DNA of 61,464 bases, taken from positions 1-61,464 of the IMG/VR virus record IMGVR_UViG_3300031673_000040; one strand, 5' to 3'. The stretch is from a virus. Both the position numbers and the translations under genes were made by a program. The notes under the pieces are model-generated. The model was given only the letters and a program-made list of their open reading frames with translations, was not told the origin of the DNA and did no database searches. This document shows, piece by piece, positions 6,713 to 49,734 of the stretch (positions are counted from its first letter, which is position 1; each line of letters begins with the position of its first letter).

Positions 6713-7011
6713 ACGACTGCGCATTTTACATAATATAGTATATGCGTTTAAGCAAATAACTATATGCTAATATACGAGTGATAGTGAGTACTCACTGGCA
6801 CACAGCGCACCATTATGGTGCAGACAGGACGGCGGGCCCGTCTCCCCTAGATGACGGCAGAACCCAAGTTTGGTTCCTTATGCAATCTTATGCAAGCAGA
6901 CGCCGCCAACCGGCGCAACCCATTCCCCACTCCAAATTCCACACACGCCACGCCACCTCGCCAACCGTCAATCCAGGACTGCCATTCGGCGAACTCCCAC
7001 AGAACTTTTCC

Positions 7012-7040
7012 CAACACAAAACCTGTCCATGTGTTATAAT
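7012..7040 (+). promoter_or_regulatory. Extended -10 promoter candidate (TGtTATAAT) upstream of terS
   Basis: catgtgttataatggg has TG one nt upstream of a perfect TATAAT. The -35 is poor. Confidence 0.5.
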
Positions 7041-7082
7041 GGGTTTCAGACTGCAAATTCCACGAACGACGAAGAAAATTTT

Positions 7083-7634
7083 ATGGCCCTGCGTTTAAAC
7101 CTGACGAGTGACGAACTTCAAGAACTCTCATCAAAGGAAGAGATCTACCACGCCCGCGAACACTGGAGAGAGCCAACAACACCTACCATAAGAAAAGTCC
7201 TTGATAAGTATCCGGGCTTCCAGCCTAACAACCTGCAAGCGACGCAAGTAGCACAACTCGTTGGCCTTGGCCTGACTGCAAAAGACATCTCAGCATCCTT
7301 ACTGATAGACCCTGTGCTCTTGAAGTTCTACTATAAGCGCGAACTCGAAGTAGGTTCAGCGCAAGTCAATGCAAAGGTCGCCCACGTCGCCCTAAAGATG
7401 GCACTAACTGGAGAAAGCCCGACCATGACGCAATTCTGGCTCAGTAGACGCGCCGGTTGGAAGGAAACGACTGTCACGGAATCAACTGTTGAAGTCCGCG
7501 ATGTCAGTGAAGCACGTAACAAACTTCTTGGCCCAAAGCCGAAACCGGCAATCGAGGGCGAGTACACAGAGGTTGTACTGGATAAAAAAGTCGAACCTTC
7601 GATCGCCGCACCGTCAACGGACACTCGCCAATGA
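7083..7634 (+). CDS. terS: Terminase small subunit candidate (183 aa; internal start MALRLNLT)
   Basis: HTH-like segment LGLTAKDISASLLID and the C-terminal FWLSRRAGWKE motif, which is common in small terminases. Its position upstream of terL fits. The 71-codon N-terminal extension in the ORF track is Pro/Thr/His-rich and implausible. Confidence 0.55.
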   Translation: MALRLNLTSDELQELSSKEEIYHAREHWREPTTPTIRKVLDKYPGFQPNNLQATQVAQLVGLGLTAKDISASLLIDPVLLKFYYKRELEVGSAQVNAKVAHVALKMALTGESPTMTQFWLSRRAGWKETTVTESTVEVRDVSEARNKLLGPKPKPAIEGEYTEVVLDKKVEPSIAAPSTDTRQ

Positions 7635-7903
7635 TAGATCTCGGAGACAACCACTTCGCAACAATCGTGGTGTTCAAAGACGATACACATGCTGCTATTG
7701 AAGTTGCACACAAGACTCCGTCGGGTGCTGACTGTCTCGAGTTCATCGCTATTACAGACTCCGCTTGGTCAAAAGAATTCAAGCCCGGAACGATCACAAC
7801 TTGGGAGCTGTTGTCCAAGGACCCACTGACACTCAGCCCGAGCCTCCTCTGCGGATGCGGGGATCACGGATTCATCCAAAACGGAAAGTGGGTAAAGGCA
7901 TGA
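7631..7903 (+). CDS. DUF6527-like protein, paralogue 1 (90 aa)
   Basis: C-terminal LTLSPSLLCGCGDHGFIQNGKW. ATGA overlap with terS. Confidence 0.55.
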   Translation: MIDLGDNHFATIVVFKDDTHAAIEVAHKTPSGADCLEFIAITDSAWSKEFKPGTITTWELLSKDPLTLSPSLLCGCGDHGFIQNGKWVKA

Positions 7904-34361: not shown

Positions 34362-35873
34362 ATGGGTCTGGAAACTGATTTCTTTGAGCTATACGGCGGC
34401 CTTAACAGAGCATACGGCACTTACGTTCAAGGGCAAGTAAACGAAGTCAAGAATAAGATGGAGGGTAAGGCCCAGACCGTTTCGGGTACTTACGAACCTA
34501 GACTGTGGATTTCGCACCTAGCAGGTGACAAGGGCATTGGTGTAATTCCCATCACCGACGAAGCGACCTGCAATTGGGGCGCTATAGACATTGACGTCTA
34601 CCCACTCGATTTAGAAGCACTTGAAAAGAAACTGCAACAACTGAATTTTCCACTCGTTGTTCTCAGAACAAAGAGCGGCGGTGCGCACCTGACCATGTAC
34701 TTGAAGACGTACATCAGCGCGTCAACCGTCAGATCAAAACTCACAGAGTTCAGCGTAGCACTCGGCTATGGCGGTGTTGAGATTTACCCAAAGCAAACGA
34801 AACTTGCAAACGGGCGCGACACAGGCAACTGGCTCAACATGCCCTACTTCAATGCTCTTAAGACAACGCGCTATGCAATAAAAGACGGCGCACCTTTGTC
34901 GGTTGACGAGTTTGTTAAGTACGCAAGATCCAAAGCTATATCAGCAAAGCAACTCGCAGAATTCGAGGTAAAACTAAGCGATACGTTCGCTGACGGTCCG
35001 CCATGCCTGCAGATAATGGCAATGAATGGCGTCCCTGAAGGTGCTCGTAATAACGCGCTTTTCGCCATGGGCGTTTACGCCATGCTGAAATACGACGACG
35101 GCTGGGAAGCAGAGCTAGACTTAATCAATCGTAATGTGATGGTTCCGCCTTTGGCAGTGCGTGACGTTCAGATGATTGGGCGTTCACTTAGCAAGAAGGA
35201 CTACTTTTATCCCTGCAACAAGCCGCCATGCGTAAATCTGTGTAATAAAGATCTGTGCAAGAAACGCAAATTCGGTATAGCAGAACTCGACGCAAAAGAC
35301 CTCGGAATAAACCTTGGCGATCTTATAAAGGTAATGACAGATCCGCCTATTTGGTTTATTGACGTTGAGGGTGTTCGTATCGAGCTAGACACAGAGGATC
35401 TGGTAAGTCAGGAGCGATTTAGGAAACTTGTTGTATCTGCAATTAACAAGCTGCCTGGAAAGATTAAACTCGCTGATTACGAAAAGATGATTCGTGATAA
35501 ACTTGAGAATGTGCAGCTACAGGAAGCACCTGTTGAGTCGGGAACAAAGGGACGGATATCTTTCCATATCGAACAGTTTTTCAATGTCACAACACCTGCT
35601 CGTATTAAAGATGAAATCATCCTAGGTAGGCACTGGACAGATCCAAGCTCAAACGTTACGCATTTCCGTGGTGCGGACTTACTACGCTATCTCGAGATGC
35701 AGGGCTTGCGTTTAGATTCAAGACGCGTTTGGATCCTGCTAAAAGACATAAAGGGTGAGCAAGGAAATCTGAAGGTTAAAGGACGTGATGTACCTACCTG
35801 GAGTCTAGTGTTACGCAACGATGAAAATGAGTCTTTTGAAGTACCTGAAATAACTGGAGATACTACGTTTTGA
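34362..35873 (+). CDS. Primase-polymerase (AEP-type) / replication initiation protein
   Basis: GIGVIPI...NWGAIDIDVY contains the DxD motif. KSGGAHL contains the His motif typical of prim-pol domains. Confidence 0.6.
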   Translation: MGLETDFFELYGGLNRAYGTYVQGQVNEVKNKMEGKAQTVSGTYEPRLWISHLAGDKGIGVIPITDEATCNWGAIDIDVYPLDLEALEKKLQQLNFPLVVLRTKSGGAHLTMYLKTYISASTVRSKLTEFSVALGYGGVEIYPKQTKLANGRDTGNWLNMPYFNALKTTRYAIKDGAPLSVDEFVKYARSKAISAKQLAEFEVKLSDTFADGPPCLQIMAMNGVPEGARNNALFAMGVYAMLKYDDGWEAELDLINRNVMVPPLAVRDVQMIGRSLSKKDYFYPCNKPPCVNLCNKDLCKKRKFGIAELDAKDLGINLGDLIKVMTDPPIWFIDVEGVRIELDTEDLVSQERFRKLVVSAINKLPGKIKLADYEKMIRDKLENVQLQEAPVESGTKGRISFHIEQFFNVTTPARIKDEIILGRHWTDPSSNVTHFRGADLLRYLEMQGLRLDSRRVWILLKDIKGEQGNLKVKGRDVPTWSLVLRNDENESFEVPEITGDTTF

Positions 35874-37403: not shown

Positions 37404-38153
37404 ATGTCAAAAGCATTAGTTGTTTTATCGGGCGGGCAGGACTCCACAACCTGCTTATTCTGGGCCCTGTCACGTTTTGACGAAGTTCATGCAATAACTG
37501 TCAACTACGGTCAAAGACACATAATCGAGATAGAAGCTGCGAAAACTGTTGCTTCAATGGCGAAAACTGCGTCACACGAAATCATTGACCTGCCCGGCGT
37601 ATTGCAATCCGTTTCTCCTCTAACGAGTAATGCACCGCTTGAGAAGTATATTAACGCAGGGCAGATGGCGGAAGTCATTGGTGACAGAGTGGAGCTTACT
37701 TTCGTCCCAATGCGCAACATATTTTTCTTTACACTGGCGATGAACAGGGCTGTTGCACTCGGCTGTGCTGCGCTCGTAACCGGCATTTGTCAAGAAGACA
37801 ACGCAAACTATCCTGATTGCACTGAGCAGTTCCGTAACGACTTTGAATGCACTGCGAATTTCTCATTGGGTAGGAATGAAACTAACTGGATAGAAGTCAT
37901 CGCTCCTCTGATGTTCAAATCCAAGAAGGAAACTGTGCTGCTTGCGCGTGACCTGCCCGGCTGTTGGGAAGCTCTTGCGCACACGCATACGTCGTATGAC
38001 GGTAAGTACCCACCGACGGACATGAACCACTCCAACGTCCTTCGCGCAAAGGGTTTTGAAGATGCTGGCTTGCCTGACCCACTTGTTCTTCGCGCTATAA
38101 AAGAGGGTTTAATGGCGGTTCCGGATACACGGAATTACGATGTCATTGCGTGA
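37404..38153 (+). CDS. queC: 7-cyano-7-deazaguanine synthase (QueC family; atypical C-terminus)
   Basis: PP-loop VVLSGGQDSTTC, YGQRH and YPDC. The C-terminal region HTHTSYDGKYPPTDMNHSNVLRAKGF lacks the Cys cluster. Confidence 0.85.
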   Translation: MSKALVVLSGGQDSTTCLFWALSRFDEVHAITVNYGQRHIIEIEAAKTVASMAKTASHEIIDLPGVLQSVSPLTSNAPLEKYINAGQMAEVIGDRVELTFVPMRNIFFFTLAMNRAVALGCAALVTGICQEDNANYPDCTEQFRNDFECTANFSLGRNETNWIEVIAPLMFKSKKETVLLARDLPGCWEALAHTHTSYDGKYPPTDMNHSNVLRAKGFEDAGLPDPLVLRAIKEGLMAVPDTRNYDVIA

Positions 38154-38346
38154 GTGCATAGACGGCCCTTTAAAAGGAGCTGTTTTTAATCTACCGGAAG
38201 GAAGGGCCTCAGCGTTCTTTCATCGCCGGGAAGGGACTGGTCGTTACCTGCCGGTTGGCGACAAGTTCTTGAAGTTTGAATACTGGCGTAAAATGTCTGA
38301 TAAAGAAATAAAGGAGATGCAAAATGTCACGGATAACACAGTTTAG
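38140..38346 (+). CDS. Hypothetical small protein (68 aa)
   Basis: ORF overlapping the queC stop by 14 nt. Confidence 0.4.
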   Translation: MSLRECIDGPLKGAVFNLPEGRASAFFHRREGTGRYLPVGDKFLKFEYWRKMSDKEIKEMQNVTDNTV

Positions 38347-38506
38347 AAGTCTATCTGATCGAGAGCTACTTGCACTCGCAGAGAAAGACGTTCTGCCCAA
38401 CTTCATAGGGACACAGCGCCAGCAGGACATCGTTGTCGAGCTTGTCCAGCGACTCGCAATAGCAGGCCGCCGAGAGCCTAACGTAGGCGGGAAGGGCATA
38501 CTGTGA
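38324..38506 (+). CDS. Hypothetical small protein (60 aa)
   Basis: SD aaggag lies 7 nt upstream. GTGA overlap with queD. Confidence 0.5.
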   Translation: MSRITQFRSLSDRELLALAEKDVLPNFIGTQRQQDIVVELVQRLAIAGRREPNVGGKGIL

Positions 38507-38949
38507 TAACCGCCGAACGTTACCATGACATATCCGCCGGTCATCGCGTGTTTGGGCACGAAAGCAAATGCGCACACCTTCATGGACACAACTATCGTAT
38601 ACACTTCAAGATAGCTGGTGCTCCAACGGAGGACAATCAGGAGGGCTTGGACACTGTGGGTCGTGTTATCGACTTCTCCGTTATCAAAGAAAAACTCTGC
38701 ATGTGGCTCGAAGAGAAGTGGGATCACAAGTTCCTTGCTTGGAAAGAAGACCCATGGGCTGATTACTTGTACCAGATTGACCGTCAAGGCCTTGTCATAA
38801 CGCCGTTTAACCCAACTGCTGAGAACATGGCACACTATCTTATGTTCACTGTCGGACCCGAGCAACTTAAAGGCACTGGTTGCGTTCTCATATCTGTACG
38901 CGTTGAAGAAACGCGTAAGTGTACAGCAACCTCGGAGATATTCGTATGA
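38503..38949 (+). CDS. queD: 6-carboxy-5,6,7,8-tetrahydropterin synthase
   Basis: HRVFGHESKCAHLHGHNY contains the Cys and His-x-His Zn site. The size is typical of QueD/PTPS. Confidence 0.9.
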   Translation: MITAERYHDISAGHRVFGHESKCAHLHGHNYRIHFKIAGAPTEDNQEGLDTVGRVIDFSVIKEKLCMWLEEKWDHKFLAWKEDPWADYLYQIDRQGLVITPFNPTAENMAHYLMFTVGPEQLKGTGCVLISVRVEETRKCTATSEIFV

Positions 38950-39845
38950 GCAAGGAAAAGTACTATCTAAATCATCGTGAGATAGAGCGTCTGGCGTCTG
39001 CGGCAATAGCTCCTCACTTGATTCGTAGGGACTGCCAAACAACTGTTTACGCTGTCCCGAGAGGAGGTGTTCCAGCGGCCTACGCAATGGCCGCCGCCGG
39101 TCTCAATATACGTCTTGTTGACGTACCCGAAGATGCCGAACTGATAGTTGACGACATAATTGCCAGCGGCGCAACACGCGAACGTTATGCGCACCTAAAA
39201 GTACCGTTCGTATCTCTGATAGACCAACGAAAAGAGTCTATTTATTCTGGGAGATGGATTGTCTTTCCGTGGGAAGCAACTGACAAGAAGGATGATTCGT
39301 TTTCCGATAACATAACTCGCCTTTTGCAATTCATTGGCGAAGATCCGAAACGTGGCGGCCTAATTGAAACGCCTCAACGTGTCGTTAAAGCATGGGAAGA
39401 ATGGACGAGTGGCTATGGAAAAGATCCTGCAAAGATCCTTAAGGTATTTGACGACGGCGGCGAGTCTTACGACCAAATCGTCCTTGTCAGAGATATTCCT
39501 TTCTACAGCCATTGCGAACACCATCTCGCTCCTTTTTTCGGTACTGCTCACGTTGGGTACATTCCTAACGGGAGCATTGTTGGTCTTAGTAAGCTGCCTG
39601 AGGTTGTTGATATTTTTGCTAGACGTCTACAGGTACAAGAGCGTCTCACTAATCAGATTGCTGACGCTATTTGGGATAATCTGAAACCCAAAGCAGTGGG
39701 CGTTGTTGTGTCTGCTCGGCACTTGTGCATGGAATCACGGGGCAAGAAAAAGAGCGGTAGTTCCACTGTAACGAGTGCGCTGCGAGGAACAATGCTTACC
39801 GAACCTGACTGTCGTGCGGAGTTTTTCAACTTGATTAAACTGTAA
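38946..39845 (+). CDS. folE: Fusion protein: N-terminal type I phosphoribosyltransferase-like domain + GTP cyclohydrolase I
   Basis: N-terminal part: VPRGGVPAAY...ELIVDDIIASGAT (PRPP loop). C-terminal part: ETPQRVVKAW, FYSHCEHHLAPF and LQVQERLT (GCH-I). ATGA overlap with queD. Confidence 0.85.
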   Translation: MSKEKYYLNHREIERLASAAIAPHLIRRDCQTTVYAVPRGGVPAAYAMAAAGLNIRLVDVPEDAELIVDDIIASGATRERYAHLKVPFVSLIDQRKESIYSGRWIVFPWEATDKKDDSFSDNITRLLQFIGEDPKRGGLIETPQRVVKAWEEWTSGYGKDPAKILKVFDDGGESYDQIVLVRDIPFYSHCEHHLAPFFGTAHVGYIPNGSIVGLSKLPEVVDIFARRLQVQERLTNQIADAIWDNLKPKAVGVVVSARHLCMESRGKKKSGSSTVTSALRGTMLTEPDCRAEFFNLIKL

Positions 39846-39854
39846 CCTGAGGTA

Positions 39855-39883
39855 TTGCATAAGATTACGTGTTGTGCAATAAT
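39855..39883 (+). promoter_or_regulatory. Sigma70-like promoter TTGCAT-17-AATAAT
   Basis: Read directly: ttgcat aagattacgtgttgtgc aataat. Shares the TTGCATAAG core with the leftward operator palindromes. Confidence 0.5.
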
Positions 39884-39900
39884 ACAACTACTCAGGCGCT

Positions 39901-39926
39901 GTGGTGCGAGGAACAGTTCGCACCAC
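39901..39926 (+). other. Perfect 9-bp stem-loop in the folE-ligase gap
   Basis: gtggtgcga ggaacagt tcgcaccac, with no T-tract. Confidence 0.5.
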
Positions 39927-39954
39927 AACCGATGAGTCTATAACCGGAGGAAAT

Positions 39955-40857
39955 ATGAAGCCAATGAAATTTGAAAGTCTTATGGATCGCGATGGTAGCG
40001 TTCACCTGGAGCGCGTGATTTATCCGAAGTACGGCAGTGCAAAGATAGACGGTAATCGCTTGTATGTGGAAGATGGGCAAGCAAAGGCGTCGTCCGGTAA
40101 GCCAACAAAGAACGCGTACATTCGTGAATACCTGAGCAAGCCTGAGTTCGACGGTCTTGACGGTGAGGTGGTTGTCGGATCACCAACAGCAAAGGACGTT
40201 CGGCGTCGCACAAGTAGCGGCGTAAGCACGCTCTTCGGCGAACCTGACTTCACCTTCCTTGTGTTTGACGACAGAACAAACCCTAACTTAGCATTCATGC
40301 AGCGCCTTGAAAATGCTGCCGATCGTGTAAATGCTTTTGACGACAAGCGCATAAAGCTAGTCCCACATCTTCGCATAAGCGACATCTCTGACCTGCTCGG
40401 ATTCGAGAGCAAACTGCTCGAAGTAGGCTGGGAAGGCATCATGCTCCGTGACCCACTTGCGCCCTACAAAGCGGGAAAGACAACGGTTCGCGAGAATTGG
40501 GGCTTCAAACTGAAACGGTTTGAGGACGGCGAAGCAGTTATTATCGGTTCTTACGAAAGGATGCACAATGACAACGAAGCTACCACAAACGAACTTGGCG
40601 GTACCAGTCGTTCGTCGCACGTTGGAAATAAACGACCTGCAGGAGATCTTGGAGGCTTGGAAGTCCGGGATGTTAAAACCGGGGTTGAATTTAGTGTGGG
40701 AACCGGGTTTGACGCCGCAGTTCGTGTGGTTCTCTGGAACGAGCGTGAGACCCTTGAGGGGCGAATTATCACATATAAGCATTTCCCTATAGGTGCGAAG
40801 GACAAGCCAAATCTACCGTCATTCGTTGCATTCAGGGACGAGGATGATATATCGTGA
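39955..40857 (+). CDS. lig: ATP-dependent DNA ligase
   Basis: Adenylation motif SAKIDGNR (KxDG), plus EGIMLR and FKLKRF. SD ggagga upstream of the ATG at 39955. Confidence 0.85.
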   Translation: MKPMKFESLMDRDGSVHLERVIYPKYGSAKIDGNRLYVEDGQAKASSGKPTKNAYIREYLSKPEFDGLDGEVVVGSPTAKDVRRRTSSGVSTLFGEPDFTFLVFDDRTNPNLAFMQRLENAADRVNAFDDKRIKLVPHLRISDISDLLGFESKLLEVGWEGIMLRDPLAPYKAGKTTVRENWGFKLKRFEDGEAVIIGSYERMHNDNEATTNELGGTSRSSHVGNKRPAGDLGGLEVRDVKTGVEFSVGTGFDAAVRVVLWNERETLEGRIITYKHFPIGAKDKPNLPSFVAFRDEDDIS

Positions 40858-41195
40858 TTGGCGCACTTGGCGACCTTGTGTCGCAATACCTTTCAGTACC
40901 AAGAGAAGTCAGAGCGGCGGGTATGCCGAGTGACGAAGTACGCTGCATCGGTTGTAGCACCGTAGCAAAAGGAGAGGTAGAAACGCAAGCTCTGTTTTAT
41001 CACAGTAAAGCAGACACCCATAAACCAAACGGGATAACAGTGTGTAGGAAAGCAGGATCCGTCTTGCAGCCCTGCAAAGCATGTACCTGTAAAAAGCAAA
41101 GGAATAGTCGTGAACGAAACAAACAGCGAAAATCTAAAAGCACTCGGCAGCAGCACAACGTACTCGTACGACAAGCCCAACCCGGAACTCCTTGA
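40854..41195 (+). CDS. Zn-ribbon-like basic protein (113 aa), overlapping queF by 86 nt
   Basis: CIGC ... CKAC Cys pairs. GTGA overlap with the ligase stop. The Lys/Arg-rich tail is read in an alternative frame of the queF 5' end. Confidence 0.4.
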
Positions 41196-41529
41196 GTACT
41201 TTCCGTGCCCATTTGACGACCGCGTCGGCGGCTTGGTTCAGATTGAGGCGCCTGAGTTTACAAGCCTTTGCCCAAAGACGGGACAACCTGACTTTGCGAA
41301 GATCGTCATTGACTACATTCCCGAAGAGCGTTGCGTGGAATCGAAGTCCCTGAAACTGTACCTGGGTTCTTTCCGTATGCACGGCGAGTTCCACGAGTCT
41401 TGTGTTGCGCGTATCCATCGTGACCTGGCTTTGCTTCTGCGTCCTAAATGGTTGCGGGTTCAAGGTCAATTTACGCCGAGGGGCGGCATCAAGTTCTGGC
41501 CTACGGTTGAAAAGAACTGGACTGAATAA
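41110..41529 (+). CDS. queF: NADPH-dependent 7-cyano-7-deazaguanine reductase (unimodular YkvM type)
   Basis: Catalytic-Cys motif [14 protein letters not shown], QueF motif ESKSLKLYL, and TPRGGI. Confidence 0.9.
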
Positions 41530-42602
41530 TGTTCACCCGCACATACGAGCTATCCCTCAATAAAGGATACGTTGCTCATTGGGGACTCGCGGAAGCTGTG
41601 CGGGAACTTATACAGAACGCGCTGGACAGCGAATCACCCTTTGTTTATGAATTCAAGAATGACGGTGACGAGCATACTCTCAAGTTGCGTTCTGAGTTTA
41701 CGACCTTGTCTCCACAAACGCTGCTTCTTGGTTCAACAAGTAAAGCGGACAGCGAGGACAGCATCGGCAGTTTTGGCGAGGGCTACAAAATTGCGCTACT
41801 TGTTCTTACGCGACTGTTCAAACCCGTTAGCATCGCCAATGGAGATAAGTTGTGGGAGCCGCGATTTAAGTACAACTCCAAATTCGAGCAGGAACTTCTT
41901 GTTGTTGAGGAAAGCACACTGGCTTATAAGAATACCGGGCTTACGTTTGAGATACGTGGGTTGACGAGTGACGAGTGCGACGACATACGCGACTCCTGCT
42001 TGCGTATGCAGAGCGACATTGGGGCGATAAAGCAAACGCCATACGGCGACATCCTGCTTGAGCGTCCAGGTAAGCTCTACGTCGGTGGCCTGTTCATTTG
42101 CTCTACAGAACTCATACACGGCTACAACATCAAACCGTCCAACATCAAGTTGGAACGCGATAGGCAAACCGTCTCGTCGTGGGAATTAAGCGCCACGACG
42201 ACGAACATGTGGTACGCGACCGAAGAGTATGAAACGATCGCAAACATGATTAACGAGGGCGTCCCAGATGTTGCAGATGCCCAATGGAGTTCGCCGGCGC
42301 TTGTCAAAGAAGCATGTTACAGACTTTTCCGTGAACAGCACCCCGGTGCAATCATTGCGGAAAATCAAACTCATCTTAAAGAGCTTGTTGCCAAGGGTAT
42401 GGAAAAGGTCGTTTTCATAGGCGGGTCTATGTACGCAAACGTATCCAGTTCAAGAGCATACAGAAGCGAAACCCGTGTTGCTGTGGAGTCGATAAATGAC
42501 CGTCTTGTGCGGTGGCTTGGCGCAAATCGTGGTAAGATGCAAGCCGCTGCGATTGTTGCTTTTAAAGAACTGATTAGCGAATCGAAAGGCTGGCATAAGT
42601 AA
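41529..42602 (+). CDS. GHKL (Bergerat-fold) ATPase-like protein, function unknown
   Basis: N-box ELIQNALDS (ExxxNAxD) and G2-like box IGSFGEGYK (compare Hsp90 IGQFGVGFY). TAATG overlaps with queF upstream and dpdA downstream. Confidence 0.55.
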   Translation: MFTRTYELSLNKGYVAHWGLAEAVRELIQNALDSESPFVYEFKNDGDEHTLKLRSEFTTLSPQTLLLGSTSKADSEDSIGSFGEGYKIALLVLTRLFKPVSIANGDKLWEPRFKYNSKFEQELLVVEESTLAYKNTGLTFEIRGLTSDECDDIRDSCLRMQSDIGAIKQTPYGDILLERPGKLYVGGLFICSTELIHGYNIKPSNIKLERDRQTVSSWELSATTTNMWYATEEYETIANMINEGVPDVADAQWSSPALVKEACYRLFREQHPGAIIAENQTHLKELVAKGMEKVVFIGGSMYANVSSSRAYRSETRVAVESINDRLVRWLGANRGKMQAAAIVAFKELISESKGWHK

Positions 42603-43552
42603 TGCCTACCGTTAACTACTACTTCTCCGGCATTGGTAACTTCTCTGTTGAGCAGAAGGAGAAGCTATCAGGCTTATGCGAGTACCGTCTGCAATCGTGT
42701 CACAAGGAGTACGTGCGACAAACAGCGGACTGGATGTACTACGCGTCGCAGCATAAGAATACAGTTGAAATCATGCTGGACTCTGGTGCATTTACTGCGT
42801 GGAACAAAGGCAAGGTTATTGAGCTTGAACCCCTGATACAGGTGTATGGTGAGATGATTGAGAAGTACGAACATGGCTTGCGTAAGGTTTGGTTGATTAA
42901 CTTGGATAAGATTCCGGGTGAGCGAGGTAGAACAGCAAGCCACGAAGAACTCGAGGAGGCAATGCGTGAATCAGATAGAAATTACGAAATCCTTGTTAAG
43001 CATTTCGGCGATCGTGTACTTCCTGTATTCCATCAAAACGAGCCGAAGGAAAGGTTACGCAATGTCTGCCAAATGGCGGACTACATTTGTATCTCTCCAA
43101 GGAACGACGTCGCGGAAAAGTTCCGTATCTCCTGGGCGGCGGAAGTACATACGCTCCTTCTTAACGAGCCTAAGAGAGTACGAACTCATGGACTTGCGAC
43201 GACAGGGATGCACATGCTCAGAAACGTTGATTGGTTTTCGGCCGACTCTGCTTGGTGGATGCAAACCGCGATTAACGGGTCAATCTTCTACCTGGCACAC
43301 GATGGAGACTTACGCACAATCCAAGTATCGGAGAGAGCTGGTGCTCGTAAAGATGCGGGACAGCATTATACAACAATTCCGAGAGCAATGCAGAAAGTAA
43401 TAGACGACCGTCTTGCTATTCACGGAATCACAATTAAAGAAGTTGCAGAGCACCATACGCCAAGGTTCGTCGCCTGCATCTACGAAGTTCTTGAATGGCT
43501 GAAAGTGGCGAAGCCGAAACCGCTACACCACGTAGGATTATTCGACCTATGA
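42602..43552 (+). CDS. dpdA: DpdA-like DNA-guanine transglycosylase (TGT superfamily)
   Basis: IMLDSGAFTAWNKG matches the catalytic Asp-Ser-Gly motif of TGT/DpdA. Supported by the que gene context. Confidence 0.7.
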   Translation: MPTVNYYFSGIGNFSVEQKEKLSGLCEYRLQSCHKEYVRQTADWMYYASQHKNTVEIMLDSGAFTAWNKGKVIELEPLIQVYGEMIEKYEHGLRKVWLINLDKIPGERGRTASHEELEEAMRESDRNYEILVKHFGDRVLPVFHQNEPKERLRNVCQMADYICISPRNDVAEKFRISWAAEVHTLLLNEPKRVRTHGLATTGMHMLRNVDWFSADSAWWMQTAINGSIFYLAHDGDLRTIQVSERAGARKDAGQHYTTIPRAMQKVIDDRLAIHGITIKEVAEHHTPRFVACIYEVLEWLKVAKPKPLHHVGLFDL

Positions 43553-44137: not shown

Positions 44138-44178
44138 TTAACGTACAGCCCCGCAAGTGGCAGAAAGAGGTGTATATC

Positions 44179-44550
44179 ATGCACATTGTAACTGATATTG
44201 AAAAAAGACACGCTGAGATGGTAACGCTCCTCGGCAAACCTGGCGAAGCTATATGCTTTACACTAACGCCTGAGGACGCGCACATCTGGCACATGGCAAC
44301 CGGCATATCTGGTGAGGCGGGTGAGATACTGGACGCTATCAAAAAGGTCGTAGTCTACCGCAAGCCCATTGACCGCGAAAACGTCATTGAAGAACTCGGC
44401 GACATTGAGTTCTACATGGAGGGCTTGCGTCAAGGACTCAATATAACTCGCGAAGAAGTTCTCGAGTACAACTATCACAAGCTAATGAAGAAGAGATACC
44501 CTAACGGTTACTCTGACCAAGCGGCACAGGCAAGGGCGGACAAGCAATGA
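44179..44550 (+). CDS. mazG: MazG-like nucleotide pyrophosphohydrolase
   Basis: SGEAGEILDAIKK ... EELGDIEFY ... NYHKLMKKRY: the EExxE/D metal-binding helices. Confidence 0.8.
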   Translation: MHIVTDIEKRHAEMVTLLGKPGEAICFTLTPEDAHIWHMATGISGEAGEILDAIKKVVVYRKPIDRENVIEELGDIEFYMEGLRQGLNITREEVLEYNYHKLMKKRYPNGYSDQAAQARADKQ

Positions 44551-45089
44551 GACTAATCGGCCTAGCAGGACCAGCGGGGTCTGGTAAAGACACAATAGCG
44601 GACTACCTTGTCGAAACGTATGACTACGATAAGATGTCATTCGCAGCACCCATCAAAGACGCACTCTGCGCAATGTTCAATTGGGATCCAAGTAAGTTGA
44701 ACGACCGTGAGTGGAAGGAAGCTGTGCTCCCTGATATTGGCAAGAGCCCGCGTCAACTGATGCAAACCCTTGGTACAGAATGGGGGCGCAATCTTGTCAA
44801 CCCTCATTTGTGGCTAATCATCGCAAAAGGTGAAATCGAGTATGCGCAGCATCACGATTTTGATATCGTTGTATCTGATGTCCGTTTTGAGAACGAAGCT
44901 AAAATGATTCGTGAGATGGGCGGCGTTATTTGGCACATAGAACGCGATCCAAAAGCAGCTAAGATGGCACATGCAAGCGAAGCTGGAGTTGAGCGAACGC
45001 TTGACGACGTTCTTTTTCTCAATACCGGGACGATTGAGGCTGCGTACGGTATTGCTGATTTTATCATCGAGGCTTTCCCGACATGCTAG
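44547..45089 (+). CDS. Deoxynucleoside monophosphate kinase
   Basis: P-loop GLAGPAGSGKDT. The size and FENE/DVRF pattern resemble phage dNMP kinases. Confidence 0.65.
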   Translation: MRLIGLAGPAGSGKDTIADYLVETYDYDKMSFAAPIKDALCAMFNWDPSKLNDREWKEAVLPDIGKSPRQLMQTLGTEWGRNLVNPHLWLIIAKGEIEYAQHHDFDIVVSDVRFENEAKMIREMGGVIWHIERDPKAAKMAHASEAGVERTLDDVLFLNTGTIEAAYGIADFIIEAFPTC

Positions 45090-48966: not shown

Positions 48967-49734
48967 TCATCTTAAATTTAAGATCTTGTGTAGTTGCAGA
49001 GATAGCTTGTGTCCGTGTTTCATGCAGAGGGTCACAGCGAGCTCCACATTCGCTTGCGTAGCAACTCCATCGCGCATGTGGGTAGTAACATCCTCATGTA
49101 CGTAGTACTCTTCCATAGGCTGGAGATACACTTGACGGTTGGCGAGTACTTTCTCGCTAGGCGGCGCCAGTGCTGCGCTCTTCTCACCTGCTTGTGTGTT
49201 CGTTATGGGTATGCCATGCTCTTCTGTATGATCGTCGAATGTCGATATAAGATACTTGTACGCGTCTGCATTTGCTTCAACCCGCGGATGCAACTTGGGT
49301 GTTTTTGGAGACACCACAATCAATGTCTCAAGGCGGTTGCCAAGCTCCGGACGCAGGTCTTCCTCAAGCAAGCTCTCAGGCCATACAGTGCCCGCTGTCT
49401 CAATCTGCACTTGCATTCCGTTCTCGCGTAGAGCACGAATCAATGGGGCTATCTCTTGCATCATTGGCTCGCCGCCGGTTAGCACAACAAGACGGTTACC
49501 AAACTCGATGCAGTCGCTAACGATGTTTTCTACGCTGACAACTGACGACGACTTCGTGTCGAAATCAGTATCACAGAAAGTGCAGCGCAGATTGCAACCG
49601 CCCAAGCGAACAAATGTGGCGGGTGTGCCAGCAAGCGGACCTTCGCCTTGTATGGTTGGGAACAGTTCACGCAGGAGAAGGAACCCTTCTTCTGGCAGGT
49701 GTGACTTCTTAAGTACTGGGTTATTTCCGAACAT
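48967..49734 (-). CDS. queE: 7-carboxy-7-deazaguanine synthase (radical SAM)
   Basis: GGCNLRCTFCDT contains the CxxxCxxC cluster. Also LTGGEP. SD aaggagga upstream. Confidence 0.9.
   Translation of the reverse strand: MFGNNPVLKKSHLPEEGFLLLRELFPTIQGEGPLAGTPATFVRLGGCNLRCTFCDTDFDTKSSSVVSVENIVSDCIEFGNRLVVLTGGEPMMQEIAPLIRALRENGMQVQIETAGTVWPESLLEEDLRPELGNRLETLIVVSPKTPKLHPRVEANADAYKYLISTFDDHTEEHGIPITNTQAGEKSAALAPPSEKVLANRQVYLQPMEEYYVHEDVTTHMRDGVATQANVELAVTLCMKHGHKLSLQLHKILNLR

Follow-up and report, generated by a model that had tools for sequence, protein, structure and literature searches.

The 61,464-nucleotide stretch of viral DNA analysed here (IMG/VR record IMGVR_UViG_3300031673_000040, positions 1 to 61,464, hereafter called the window) carries, among genes for 7-deazaguanine DNA modification, an open reading frame (ORF) in which a short domain of phosphoribosyltransferase (PRTase) type precedes GTP cyclohydrolase I (FolE). 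The genes queC and queD lie on its 5' side, queF and a gene for a DpdA-type DNA transglycosylase on its 3' side (Table 1). Schemes of the phage 7-deazaguanine pathways run FolE-QueD-QueE-(QueC/QueF/...)-DpdA, and in the pathway literature that we searched there is no mention of a PRTase, no paper that combines phosphoribosyl transferase, QueD, QueE and phage, and no treatment of the fate of the released guanine or of the GTP cost. Our analysis indicates that the N-terminal domain is a minimal relative of the xanthine-guanine PRTase Gpt, referred to below as the mini-PRTase, which is found both fused to FolE and as a separate gene in phages that make 7-deazaguanines; Gpt-derived PRTases may belong, so far unnoticed, to the core accessories of DNA modification with 7-deazaguanines in phages.

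The fusion gene and its two domains

An initial annotation, made from the sequence of the window, had placed the fusion ORF at 38946-39845. It is present there, and the peptides quoted from it (VYAVPRGGVPAAYAMA, ELIVDDIIASGAT, ETPQRVVKAW, FYSHCEHHLAPF and QVQERLT) were all found, as was the overlap of its ATG (38946-38948) with the queD stop codon TGA (38947-38949) in the tetranucleotide ATGA. A GGAG motif is located 8 nt 5' of this ATG. The N-termini of the fusion homologues begin at the same position, hence ATG 38946, and not the GTG further 5' at 38919, is the likely start of the fusion. A protein identical to the window fusion (P0003) is encoded on a contig of 61,486 bp. A megablast search with window positions 38000-41000 gave no match to GenBank phages, which means that the window has no close cultured relative. 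It had also been considered that a frameshift or an assembly error could have joined two ORFs artificially, and this origin is excluded because over 100 independent loci, and cultured phage genomes as well, preserve the fusion.

Table 1. Positions of the fusion gene, its motifs, the associated genes of the window and the free-standing relatives
Feature	Position	Strand	Basis or remark
PRTase-FolE fusion ORF	38946..39845	+	299 aa plus stop; ATG overlaps queD stop
Mini-PRTase domain, residues 1-112	38946..39281	+	AlphaFold2 pLDDT 94.2; Foldseek; profile against PDB, E=2e-5
Pyrophosphate (PPi) loop P38-R39-G40-G41 (= Gpt S36-R37-G38-G39)	39057..39068	+	96-100% conserved in 271 members
Short turn V58-A64 (VDVPEDA) at the position of flexible loop II	39117..39137	+	Split alignments to 1vdm and XGPRT; model
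Phosphoribosyl pyrophosphate (PRPP)-binding loop E65-T77 (ELIVDDIIASGAT)	39138..39176	+	D69, D70, S74, G75, T77 conserved
Gln94, end of beta4, instead of O6-binding Lys (85% of family; Gpt K115)	39225..39227	+	Alignment
Hood: W104 (purine-stacking, = Gpt W134) and F107-P108-W109-E110	39255..39275	+	Alignments
GTP cyclohydrolase I (FolE) domain, residues 113-299	39282..39842	+	Pfam 1.2e-69, NCBIfam 4.5e-71
queC	37404..38153	+	
queD (PTPS family), translationally coupled 5' gene	38503..38949	+	
queF (unimodular), CPKTGQPD Cys motif	41110..41529	+	Motifs read from translation
DpdA-type DNA transglycosylase (phrog_887)	42602..43552	+	
queE candidate (radical SAM, CNLRCTFC)	48967..49734	-	Only QueE candidate; ~5.4 kb beyond dpdA
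Free-standing PRTases (phiST, immuto_2-6A, CP220 group, MaInes, BUCT-ZZ01)	L145 28218-28646; L147 8980-9375; L146 8992-9405; L148 7983-8468; L149 7908-8369	- (L145)	

The C-terminal part was rightly described as a standard FolE. Residues 121-297 match the Pfam family PF01227 GTP_cyclohydroI (E=1.2e-69; 233.8 bits, cut-off 27), and the part exceeds the cut-off in three NCBIfam FolE models, with 238 bits against 174 in NF006825 and 210.9 against 181.6 in TIGR00063. The residues C190-E191-H192-H193 (39513-39524), Q229/E232 and H259/C261 are present and are invariant in 70 fusions; from what is known of E. coli FolE (C-E-H-H, Q..E and H-x-C) we take them to have the zinc-binding and catalytic roles. 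FolE is expected to form a decamer.

For the N-terminal part, curated models give matches below their thresholds only: 16.0 bits against 26.3 for PF00156, 19.8 bits against 138 for the xanthine PRTase model NF006613 (E=4e-4, residues 4-59), and E=0.0045 for phrog_8995 (residues 66-111). A profile built from 41 N-terminal domains, however, matches the XGPRTs of E. coli and Yersinia and the purine PRTase of P. horikoshii in the Protein Data Bank (PDB), with a best E of 2e-5. The type I PRTase core that the initial annotation had read from the motifs was borne out by AlphaFold2 modelling, in which residues 1-115 reach a mean pLDDT (the predicted local confidence) of 94.2 and the best Foldseek matches in the PDB are all small 6-oxopurine PRTases (probability 1.00, TMq 0.55-0.67), namely S. 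solfataricus HGXPRT, E. coli XGPRT, 1VDM and H. pylori XGHPRT. The order of the elements in the model is beta0, alpha1, beta1, PPi loop, alpha2, beta2, a short turn, beta3, PRPP loop, alpha3, beta4 and beta5 with the hood, so that residues 1-112 are predicted to adopt a type I PRTase fold of the Gpt/XGPRT class, with five parallel strands in an alpha/beta core. In the full-length model (pLDDT 93.9, overall confidence pTM 0.84) the confidence dips, to 75, only at the linker 111-120. The residues W104 and F107-P108-W109-E110 align with W134...PWD of Gpt, the class from which the mini-PRTase is derived.

The initial annotation was right that the domain falls short of a full PRTase in length, and this can now be made precise, since about 25 residues are gone and they correspond to the hairpin of loop II (Gpt ~58-84). 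Alignments to Gpt-type enzymes fall into two pieces, in which query residues ~4-60 pair with Gpt 3-57 and residues 59/66-113 with Gpt 84-141, while the loop II hairpin that leads from beta2 to the PRPP loop (Gpt ~58-84; 1vdm 58-94) has no counterpart in the mini-PRTase. At this site the model shows a turn of seven residues with only a three-residue helical turn between strands 55-57 and 66-72. Structural work on HGPRT links loop II to transition-state formation and loops I and III to PRPP's two phosphates, and assigns purine recognition to loop IV together with a strand lysine, a role of an aromatic residue being also described (PMC2228302). As the catalytic flexible loop II is missing, the activity of the mini-PRTase cannot be assumed.

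Distribution of the fusion

The initial annotation was aware of no description of such a fusion in que or dpd clusters, and none was found in the literature that we searched; the fusion is, however, common and not singular. A tblastn search at a coverage of at least 80% found it in 34 GenBank phage records, all of them labelled simply as GTP cyclohydrolase. The carriers include the Nipunavirus phages PaMx25, NP1, JG012 and Quinobequin-P09, the Vibrio phages VpKK5 and 1.207.B, and phages of Stenotrophomonas, Xanthomonas, Variovorax and Sphingomonas. With the N-terminal profile, exhaustive HMMER searching found 703 protein clusters at E<=1e-10; the exhaustive search was required, for a word-indexed search with the N-terminal 115 residues returned only two matches. 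In a set of 5.8 billion proteins the 120 best protein clusters are all 287-320 residues long, and a precomputed PF00156 hit is recorded for only two of them.

Among the viral contigs of IMG/VR at least 293 contain the mini-PRTase domain. We fetched 80 of these loci, and in 78 the PRTase and FolE form one ORF inside a cluster of QueE, QueC, QueD and DpdA genes; the exceptions are L039, where a stop codon splits the ORF, and L081, a truncated orphan. A further 21 distinct IMG/VR loci were fused without exception, and they too belong to Que/DpdA clusters. DpdA homologues were detected by an iterated hidden Markov model (HMM) in 71 of 84 sequences (83 loci and the window), and in L050 and L051 the fusion stands alongside a DpdA3-like gene. 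For PaMx25 (L002, NC_041953, 6865-7795), RefSeq lists two overlapping coding sequences, gp38 as a hypothetical protein and folE, at a place where a single ORF of 297 residues (6902-7792) holds both domains, which helps to explain why the mini-PRTase domain escaped notice. About 580-residue versions of the fusion also exist (P0130, P0227 and L022 10001-11740), in which an intein with an HNH endonuclease interrupts FolE at profile position ~70-75.

In 185,579 species genomes at least five loci were confirmed, one of which is a canonical Gpt and one a likely phage contig; among the matches listed, the nearest cellular one is a canonical alphaproteobacterial Gpt with the motifs DDLVDSGRT...WILFPWE. 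Chromosomes of Dehalococcoidia/Tepidiformaceae carry PRTase-FolE-like fusions and one free-standing mini-PRTase (L141 7866-8771; L142 7956-8924; L143 7905-8351), and within 8 kb of them an HMM scan detected neither Que nor DpdA genes. The FolE part of these fusions is divergent, with CERH in place of CEHH, which suggests a different function. One protein of 264 residues (P0206) was considered as a PRTase-DpdA fusion: its mini-PRTase is followed by a segment weakly like the catalytic region of DpdA (HG...SxDSxxW), but this is a weak local match (pairwise E=3e-4) with no Pfam hit, and we gave it no weight. Its probable origin is a deletion that joined neighbouring PRTase-FolE and DpdA genes into a chimera.

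Free-standing relatives

The best viral structural match of the domain is a protein annotated as 'phosphoribosyl transferase' in Cellulophaga phage phiST (E=4.4e-7), which has the same set of motifs, GLSRGG, ILFVDDICDSGLT, LIDK and GWIVFPWEK. A tblastn search with this protein found 34 phage records, of which five are from Cellulophaga (phiST, phi13:1, phi19:2), four from Flavobacterium phage immuto, 15 from Campylobacter phages (including CP220, CPt10 and CP21), two from Brevundimonas, one from Synechococcus and two from uncultured phages, and the remaining five are weak matches to fusion-carrying Vibrio phage records. Five of these free-standing PRTases will be named here, namely phiST CGPG_00045, immuto_2-6A gp211, CP220 YP_009169316, MaInes_00780 and Synechococcus BUCT-ZZ01 UTS52039, and the mini-PRTase HMM detects all of them (E from 4e-16 to 8e-6). 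They differ in loop II, which has about 27 residues in phiST, is short in CP220 and is absent in immuto. The free-standing phage PRTases share the motif set with the window but are separate genes and not fused, and no published function for them was found in the literature searched.

Every named free-standing PRTase sits in a phage with FolE, QueD and QueE genes. The gene order in immuto_2-6A is QueD-QueE-PRT-FolE-...-DpdA3-DpdN-...-QueF, and its loop-less PRTase of 131 residues, encoded directly 5' of folE, is the unfused equivalent of the window fusion. Synechococcus phage BUCT-ZZ01 has the order QueE-PRT-x-QueD-FolE, and in CP220 the PRTase gene is two genes from a radical SAM gene. In phiST it lies beside the ribonucleotide reductase (RNR) gene, 17 kb from the que cluster and folE. 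Brevundimonas phage MaInes has the order RNR-deoxynucleoside monophosphate (dNMP) kinase-FolE-PRT with QueC/D/E 9 kb upstream; the presence of these genes rules out the idea, drawn from the MaInes pair, of a PRTase tied to FolE alone in a phage without que genes. The phages phiST, immuto_2-6A and CP220 are reported to replace all of their G, by dDG, fdPreQ1 and dADG respectively, and to do so with DpdA3 (PMC10516641).

A dedicated PRTase is found in at least six unrelated phage lineages, the Nipunavirus-like siphophages, Cbastvirus, Immutovirus, Eucampyvirinae, a Kyanoviridae cyanophage and a Brevundimonas phage, and this recurrence suggests a missing step of the pathway. Further free-standing mini-PRTases of ~140-180 residues (P0132, P0137, P0143, P0153, P0002; L001 10001-10537) retain all residues of the catalytic site. 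Their C-terminal helix aligns with the first helix of FolE and is followed by a second, variable helix. The one of known context, at L001, is encoded between helicase genes on a myovirus-like contig, and no que gene is found within 10 kb of it.

Conservation of the family and the atypical window copy

Residue conservation was computed over 271 members of the family. In the PPi loop R39 is kept in 96%, G40 in 99% and G41 in 100%. The PRPP-binding loop, which the initial annotation had pointed out, has D69 D70 ... S74 G75 A76 T77 in the window and is almost invariant in the family (D69 and D70 99.6% each, S/T74 and G75 99% each, T77 99.6%). As for the purine contacts, D73, at the position of Gpt D92 and HGPRT D137 that contacts N7, is present in 263 of the 271 (97%), and K94, at the position of Gpt K115 that contacts O6/N7, in 231 (85%). 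The purine-stacking W104 is kept in 92% (97% aromatic), and the hood F107-P108-W109-E110 in 95-99% of non-gap positions. Since the residues for PRPP/PPi and those for the purine are both conserved, the Gpt-type sites are under strong selection. The domain is otherwise fast-evolving, with a mean column identity of 39% against 54% for the whole protein and an identity of the window copy to its nearest homologues of 43-50% against ~74-80% overall.

The window copy is unusual in just these purine contacts, for it has Ala73 at the position in the PRPP loop where 97% have the N7-contacting Asp, together with Gln94 (Table 1). The pair occurs in only three of the 271, the window, its identical copy P0003, and P0005, a protein 73% identical to the window overall and 50% in the mini-PRTase domain; similar pairs without Asp and Lys are found in P0131 (Cys/Gln) and P0113 (Ala/Phe). 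The joint loss of D73 and K94 is above expectation (Fisher p=0.002, kinship ignored). These replacements concern the two positions by which the N7/O6 edge of the purine is read, and the guanine activity of the window protein may therefore be reduced or its base preference altered. The window copy is accordingly a poor representative for any hypothesis about guanine.

One explanation is that, in the window phage only, the domain is a weakened or inactive relic kept for the folding or oligomerisation of FolE. The rarity of the Ala73/Gln94 pair and the two further pairs without Asp and Lys would fit a relic, as would a domain that evolves much faster than FolE and the existence of truncated orphans such as L081. 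We consider it very unlikely, because the window and P0005, which differ at half of the domain positions, both keep PRGG, A64, DD, SGxT, F88, L91, W104, FPWE and every other invariant residue. The domain is then still under selection and the lineage not simply decaying; the alignment indicates that purifying selection on PRPP binding and the hood probably continues in it.

An association of the Ala73/Gln94 variant with QueF (preQ1) clusters was considered and is unsupported, as other QueF-containing clusters have Asp and Lys. In clusters without QueC that are ordered QueD-QueE-[PRT-FolE]-DpdA (L025, L036, L072, L074, L103) the Lys94 position is Tyr or Phe, and in L054 it is Arg, while QueC-less clusters ordered DpdA-QueD-QueE-[PRT-FolE] retain Lys. 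The replacement of Lys in the QueC-less lineage may be lineage-specific or tied to the base that is made.

Proposed function

From the fold, motifs, family-wide conservation and genomic association described above we infer the substrate, the turnover and a recycling loop, and our preferred reading, held tentatively and at somewhat less than an even chance, is that the family mini-PRTase is a minimal 6-oxopurine PRTase which turns the guanine released by DpdA into GMP, clearing a competing base and refuelling GTP for FolE. In this scheme DpdA would insert the 7-deazaguanine base into DNA and release one free guanine per site, the PRTase domain would bind PRPP and guanine and form GMP, the host kinases Gmk and Ndk would take GMP to GTP, and the FolE domain of the same polypeptide would commit this GTP to 7-deazaguanine synthesis. 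One genome copy of the window contains about 29,900 G. The removal of guanine would clear a competitor of preQ0/preQ1 for the DpdA-DNA intermediate, as the ping-pong mechanism of the TGT family implies, and the purine ring would be returned to the GTP pool that FolE drains. Fusion, or adjacency of the PRTase and FolE genes, would give co-expression, and fusion would probably also provide an oligomeric FolE scaffold for a domain without its own lid. The initial annotation had already proposed salvage of guanine; the removal of the product is our addition and is put forward with the same caution, as is the resulting purine cycle, conceivable but a little short of probable, in which the excised guanine would be converted into its own replacement base.

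Several observations favour guanine salvage. The relatives of the domain are guanine/xanthine PRTases, its purine contacts are conserved, and its link with DpdA clusters is near-exclusive. The purine-site residues are constant across clusters with QueC, without QueC, with QueF and with Gat-QueC, and a site that is indifferent to the 7-deazaguanine product points to a shared ligand, for instance guanine. With both substrate sites conserved in this way, a minimal 6-oxopurine PRTase is the most economical reading, the more so since guanine is freed in every DpdA exchange and would be most abundant at complete replacement, where the free-standing relatives occur.

Against these stand a number of points, and the salvage idea of the initial annotation holds up only in part. 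Loop II is missing from all fused members, and the window has lost the Asp and Lys of the purine site (D73A/K94Q). Loop II closes over the active site, and HPRTs from which it is deleted lose orders of magnitude in kcat. Two kinase steps separate GMP from GTP, so that the fusion gives no direct channelling, which the salvage model does not need, and in many hosts a Gpt or Hpt is present anyway. Among the 406 GenBank phages with a FolE match the mini-PRTase was found in only 34, and E. coli phages of the same subfamily are without it. A nucleoside form of ADG has been reported from CP220-infected cells (PMC10516641, citing Crippen 2019), and this fits better with a PRTase acting on deazapurines.

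Such an enzyme is the first rival. A 7-deazapurine PRTase like TubE or ToyH would join PRPP with 7-carboxy-7-deazaguanine (CDG), preQ0, preQ1 or another 7-deazaguanine to a modified ribonucleotide, and this product may enter DNA through a kinase, RNR and polymerase, or serve another role, in parallel to DpdA. TubE, whose gene stands together with those for GTP cyclohydrolase I, QueD and QueE, has been shown biochemically to be a CDG-PRPP transferase (PMC6112128), and ToyH is its proposed preQ0 counterpart (PMC6112128; bioRxiv 2026.04.15.718813); this precedent of PRTases in such clusters points to a substrate other than guanine and in this respect the earlier salvage idea needs correction. The authors aligned TubE with S. 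solfataricus HGXPRT 4Z1O, of the PDB family that tops the Foldseek list of the mini-PRTase. Relatives adjoin RNR and dNMP kinase genes in phiST and MaInes, MazG-like and dNMP kinase genes come just after dpdA in the window, and the ADG nucleoside mentioned above fits this reading. Reconstitution of DpdA3/DpdL in E. coli failed, for which the authors suggest that unknown enzymes are missing (PMC10516641), and D73A/K94Q of the window would remodel the exact N7/O6 edge that differs in 7-deazaguanines. Nevertheless, we regard this as rather unlikely for the family, because 97% keep the Asp that reads the N7 of a normal purine, an acidic residue that should repel the carboxylate of CDG, and because the pocket does not co-vary with the base of the cluster, other QueF clusters having Asp and Lys. 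In addition, DpdA takes the free base, so that a PRTase acting on that base would drain the substrate of DpdA, and clusters of TubE type are characteristically without DpdA (bioRxiv 2026.04.15.718813), whereas the fusion clusters have it. For the Ala73/Gln94 lineages like that of the window, and for phages with complete replacement, ribosylation of the 7-deazaguanine base itself as a nucleotide-level route into DNA is likewise rather unlikely.

The second rival is a non-catalytic sensor, a loop-less PRTase fold with PRPP, GMP, guanine or (p)ppGpp as its ligand, which would regulate FolE allosterically and match the drain on GTP to the purine supply or to DpdA activity; we think both its existence and this use unlikely. 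The absence of catalytic loop II would be expected of it, as would a domain that is always N-terminal to FolE or encoded beside it. The full-length model (pTM 0.84) suggests a fixed arrangement of the two domains, the C-terminal helix of free-standing mini-PRTases, which in alignments matches the first helix of FolE, might serve for docking, and a ppGpp-binding PRTase fold (5vog) is among the Foldseek matches. However, the sites for PRPP/PPi and for purine are both conserved, and catalysis needs both while a sensor of one ligand does not. The PRTase of phiST, moreover, lies 17 kb from folE and keeps a loop II of ~27 residues, and L001 has no que genes within 10 kb. A role in counter-defence was also considered, PRTase effectors being known in retron-Eco11 and ShosTA, and no supporting evidence was found.

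If guanine salvage is true, the modification would largely pay for its own purine and remove a competitor of DpdA. Should the enzyme instead ribosylate deazapurines, there would be a second, nucleotide-level route into DNA, which would explain both the replacement of 100% of G and the failed DpdA3/DpdL reconstitutions. Either outcome would guide the reconstitution of these systems, which has failed in E. coli, and would supply a probable missing step, whether purine recycling or a nucleotide-level route, of an actively studied pathway. The annotation of hundreds of 'GTP cyclohydrolase' genes would be corrected.

Comparison with known systems

The mini-PRTase shares with E. coli Gpt/XGPRT (1A95, 4JLS) and the small archaeal PRTases (1VDM, 5BQO) the fold, the N-terminal strand, the (S/P)RGG PPi loop, the DDxxD(S/T)GxT PRPP loop, the Lys after beta4 (as a family) and the hood of Trp and PW(E/D). 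It differs from Gpt in its length of ~110 instead of ~150 residues, in lacking the loop II hairpin and the C-terminal tail, in its fusion to FolE and in falling below the curated HMM cut-offs, and in the window copy Ala and Gln take the places of Asp and Lys. TubE of the tubercidin and ToyH of the toyocamycin pathway resemble the window in that a purine-type PRTase is encoded together with homologues of GTP cyclohydrolase I, QueD and QueE; unlike the fusion they are free-standing proteins of ~190 residues from actinomycete antibiotic clusters without DpdA, and the substrate of TubE is CDG. TubE also shares the structural neighbour S. solfataricus HGXPRT with the mini-PRTase. A precedent for the fusion of an accessory domain in phage 7-deazaguanine clusters is Gat-QueC, a glutamine amidotransferase joined to QueC, although other domains and another step are concerned there and its described role is in G+ formation. 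Regulatory proteins with a PRTase fold, of the type of B. subtilis PurR and PyrR, use the fold to bind PRPP or nucleotides and not for catalysis alone, and carry nucleic-acid-binding functions. In the PRTase-FolE protein, by contrast, FolE is the sole other domain, there is no nucleic-acid-binding module, and both substrate sites look catalytic. What is already known is thus the two domains, and the sequences are in public databases; what appears to be new, being undescribed in the literature searched, is a Gpt-type domain without loop II, the joining of this domain to FolE and the general association of such PRTases with the 7-deazaguanine modification of phage DNA.

Other genes of the window

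The motifs of queF make preQ1 the likely base of the window cluster. In nearly all related loci QueE adjoins the other que genes, unlike in the window. An ATP-dependent DNA ligase is encoded between folE and queF (39901-40857, +), and the MazG-like pyrophosphatase and the dNMP kinase (44170-44550 and 44547-45089, +) stand just 3' of dpdA, before the sliding clamp and a family A polymerase. Between queF and dpdA (41529-42602, +) lies the gene for a protein of 357 residues which matches phrog_6077 (E=8.5e-95) and has no Pfam hit, and an HMM scan found no homologue of it in the 83 comparison loci. Its N-terminus looks by eye like a GHKL-type ATPase (ELIQNALDS ... GSFGEGYK), and it is a candidate for a further modification or accessory enzyme. 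Finally, a primase-like protein is encoded at 34362-35873 (+), and the one Pfam family that it matches is PF22548 (E=3e-9), the AEP domain of the 'TOTE conflict system'.

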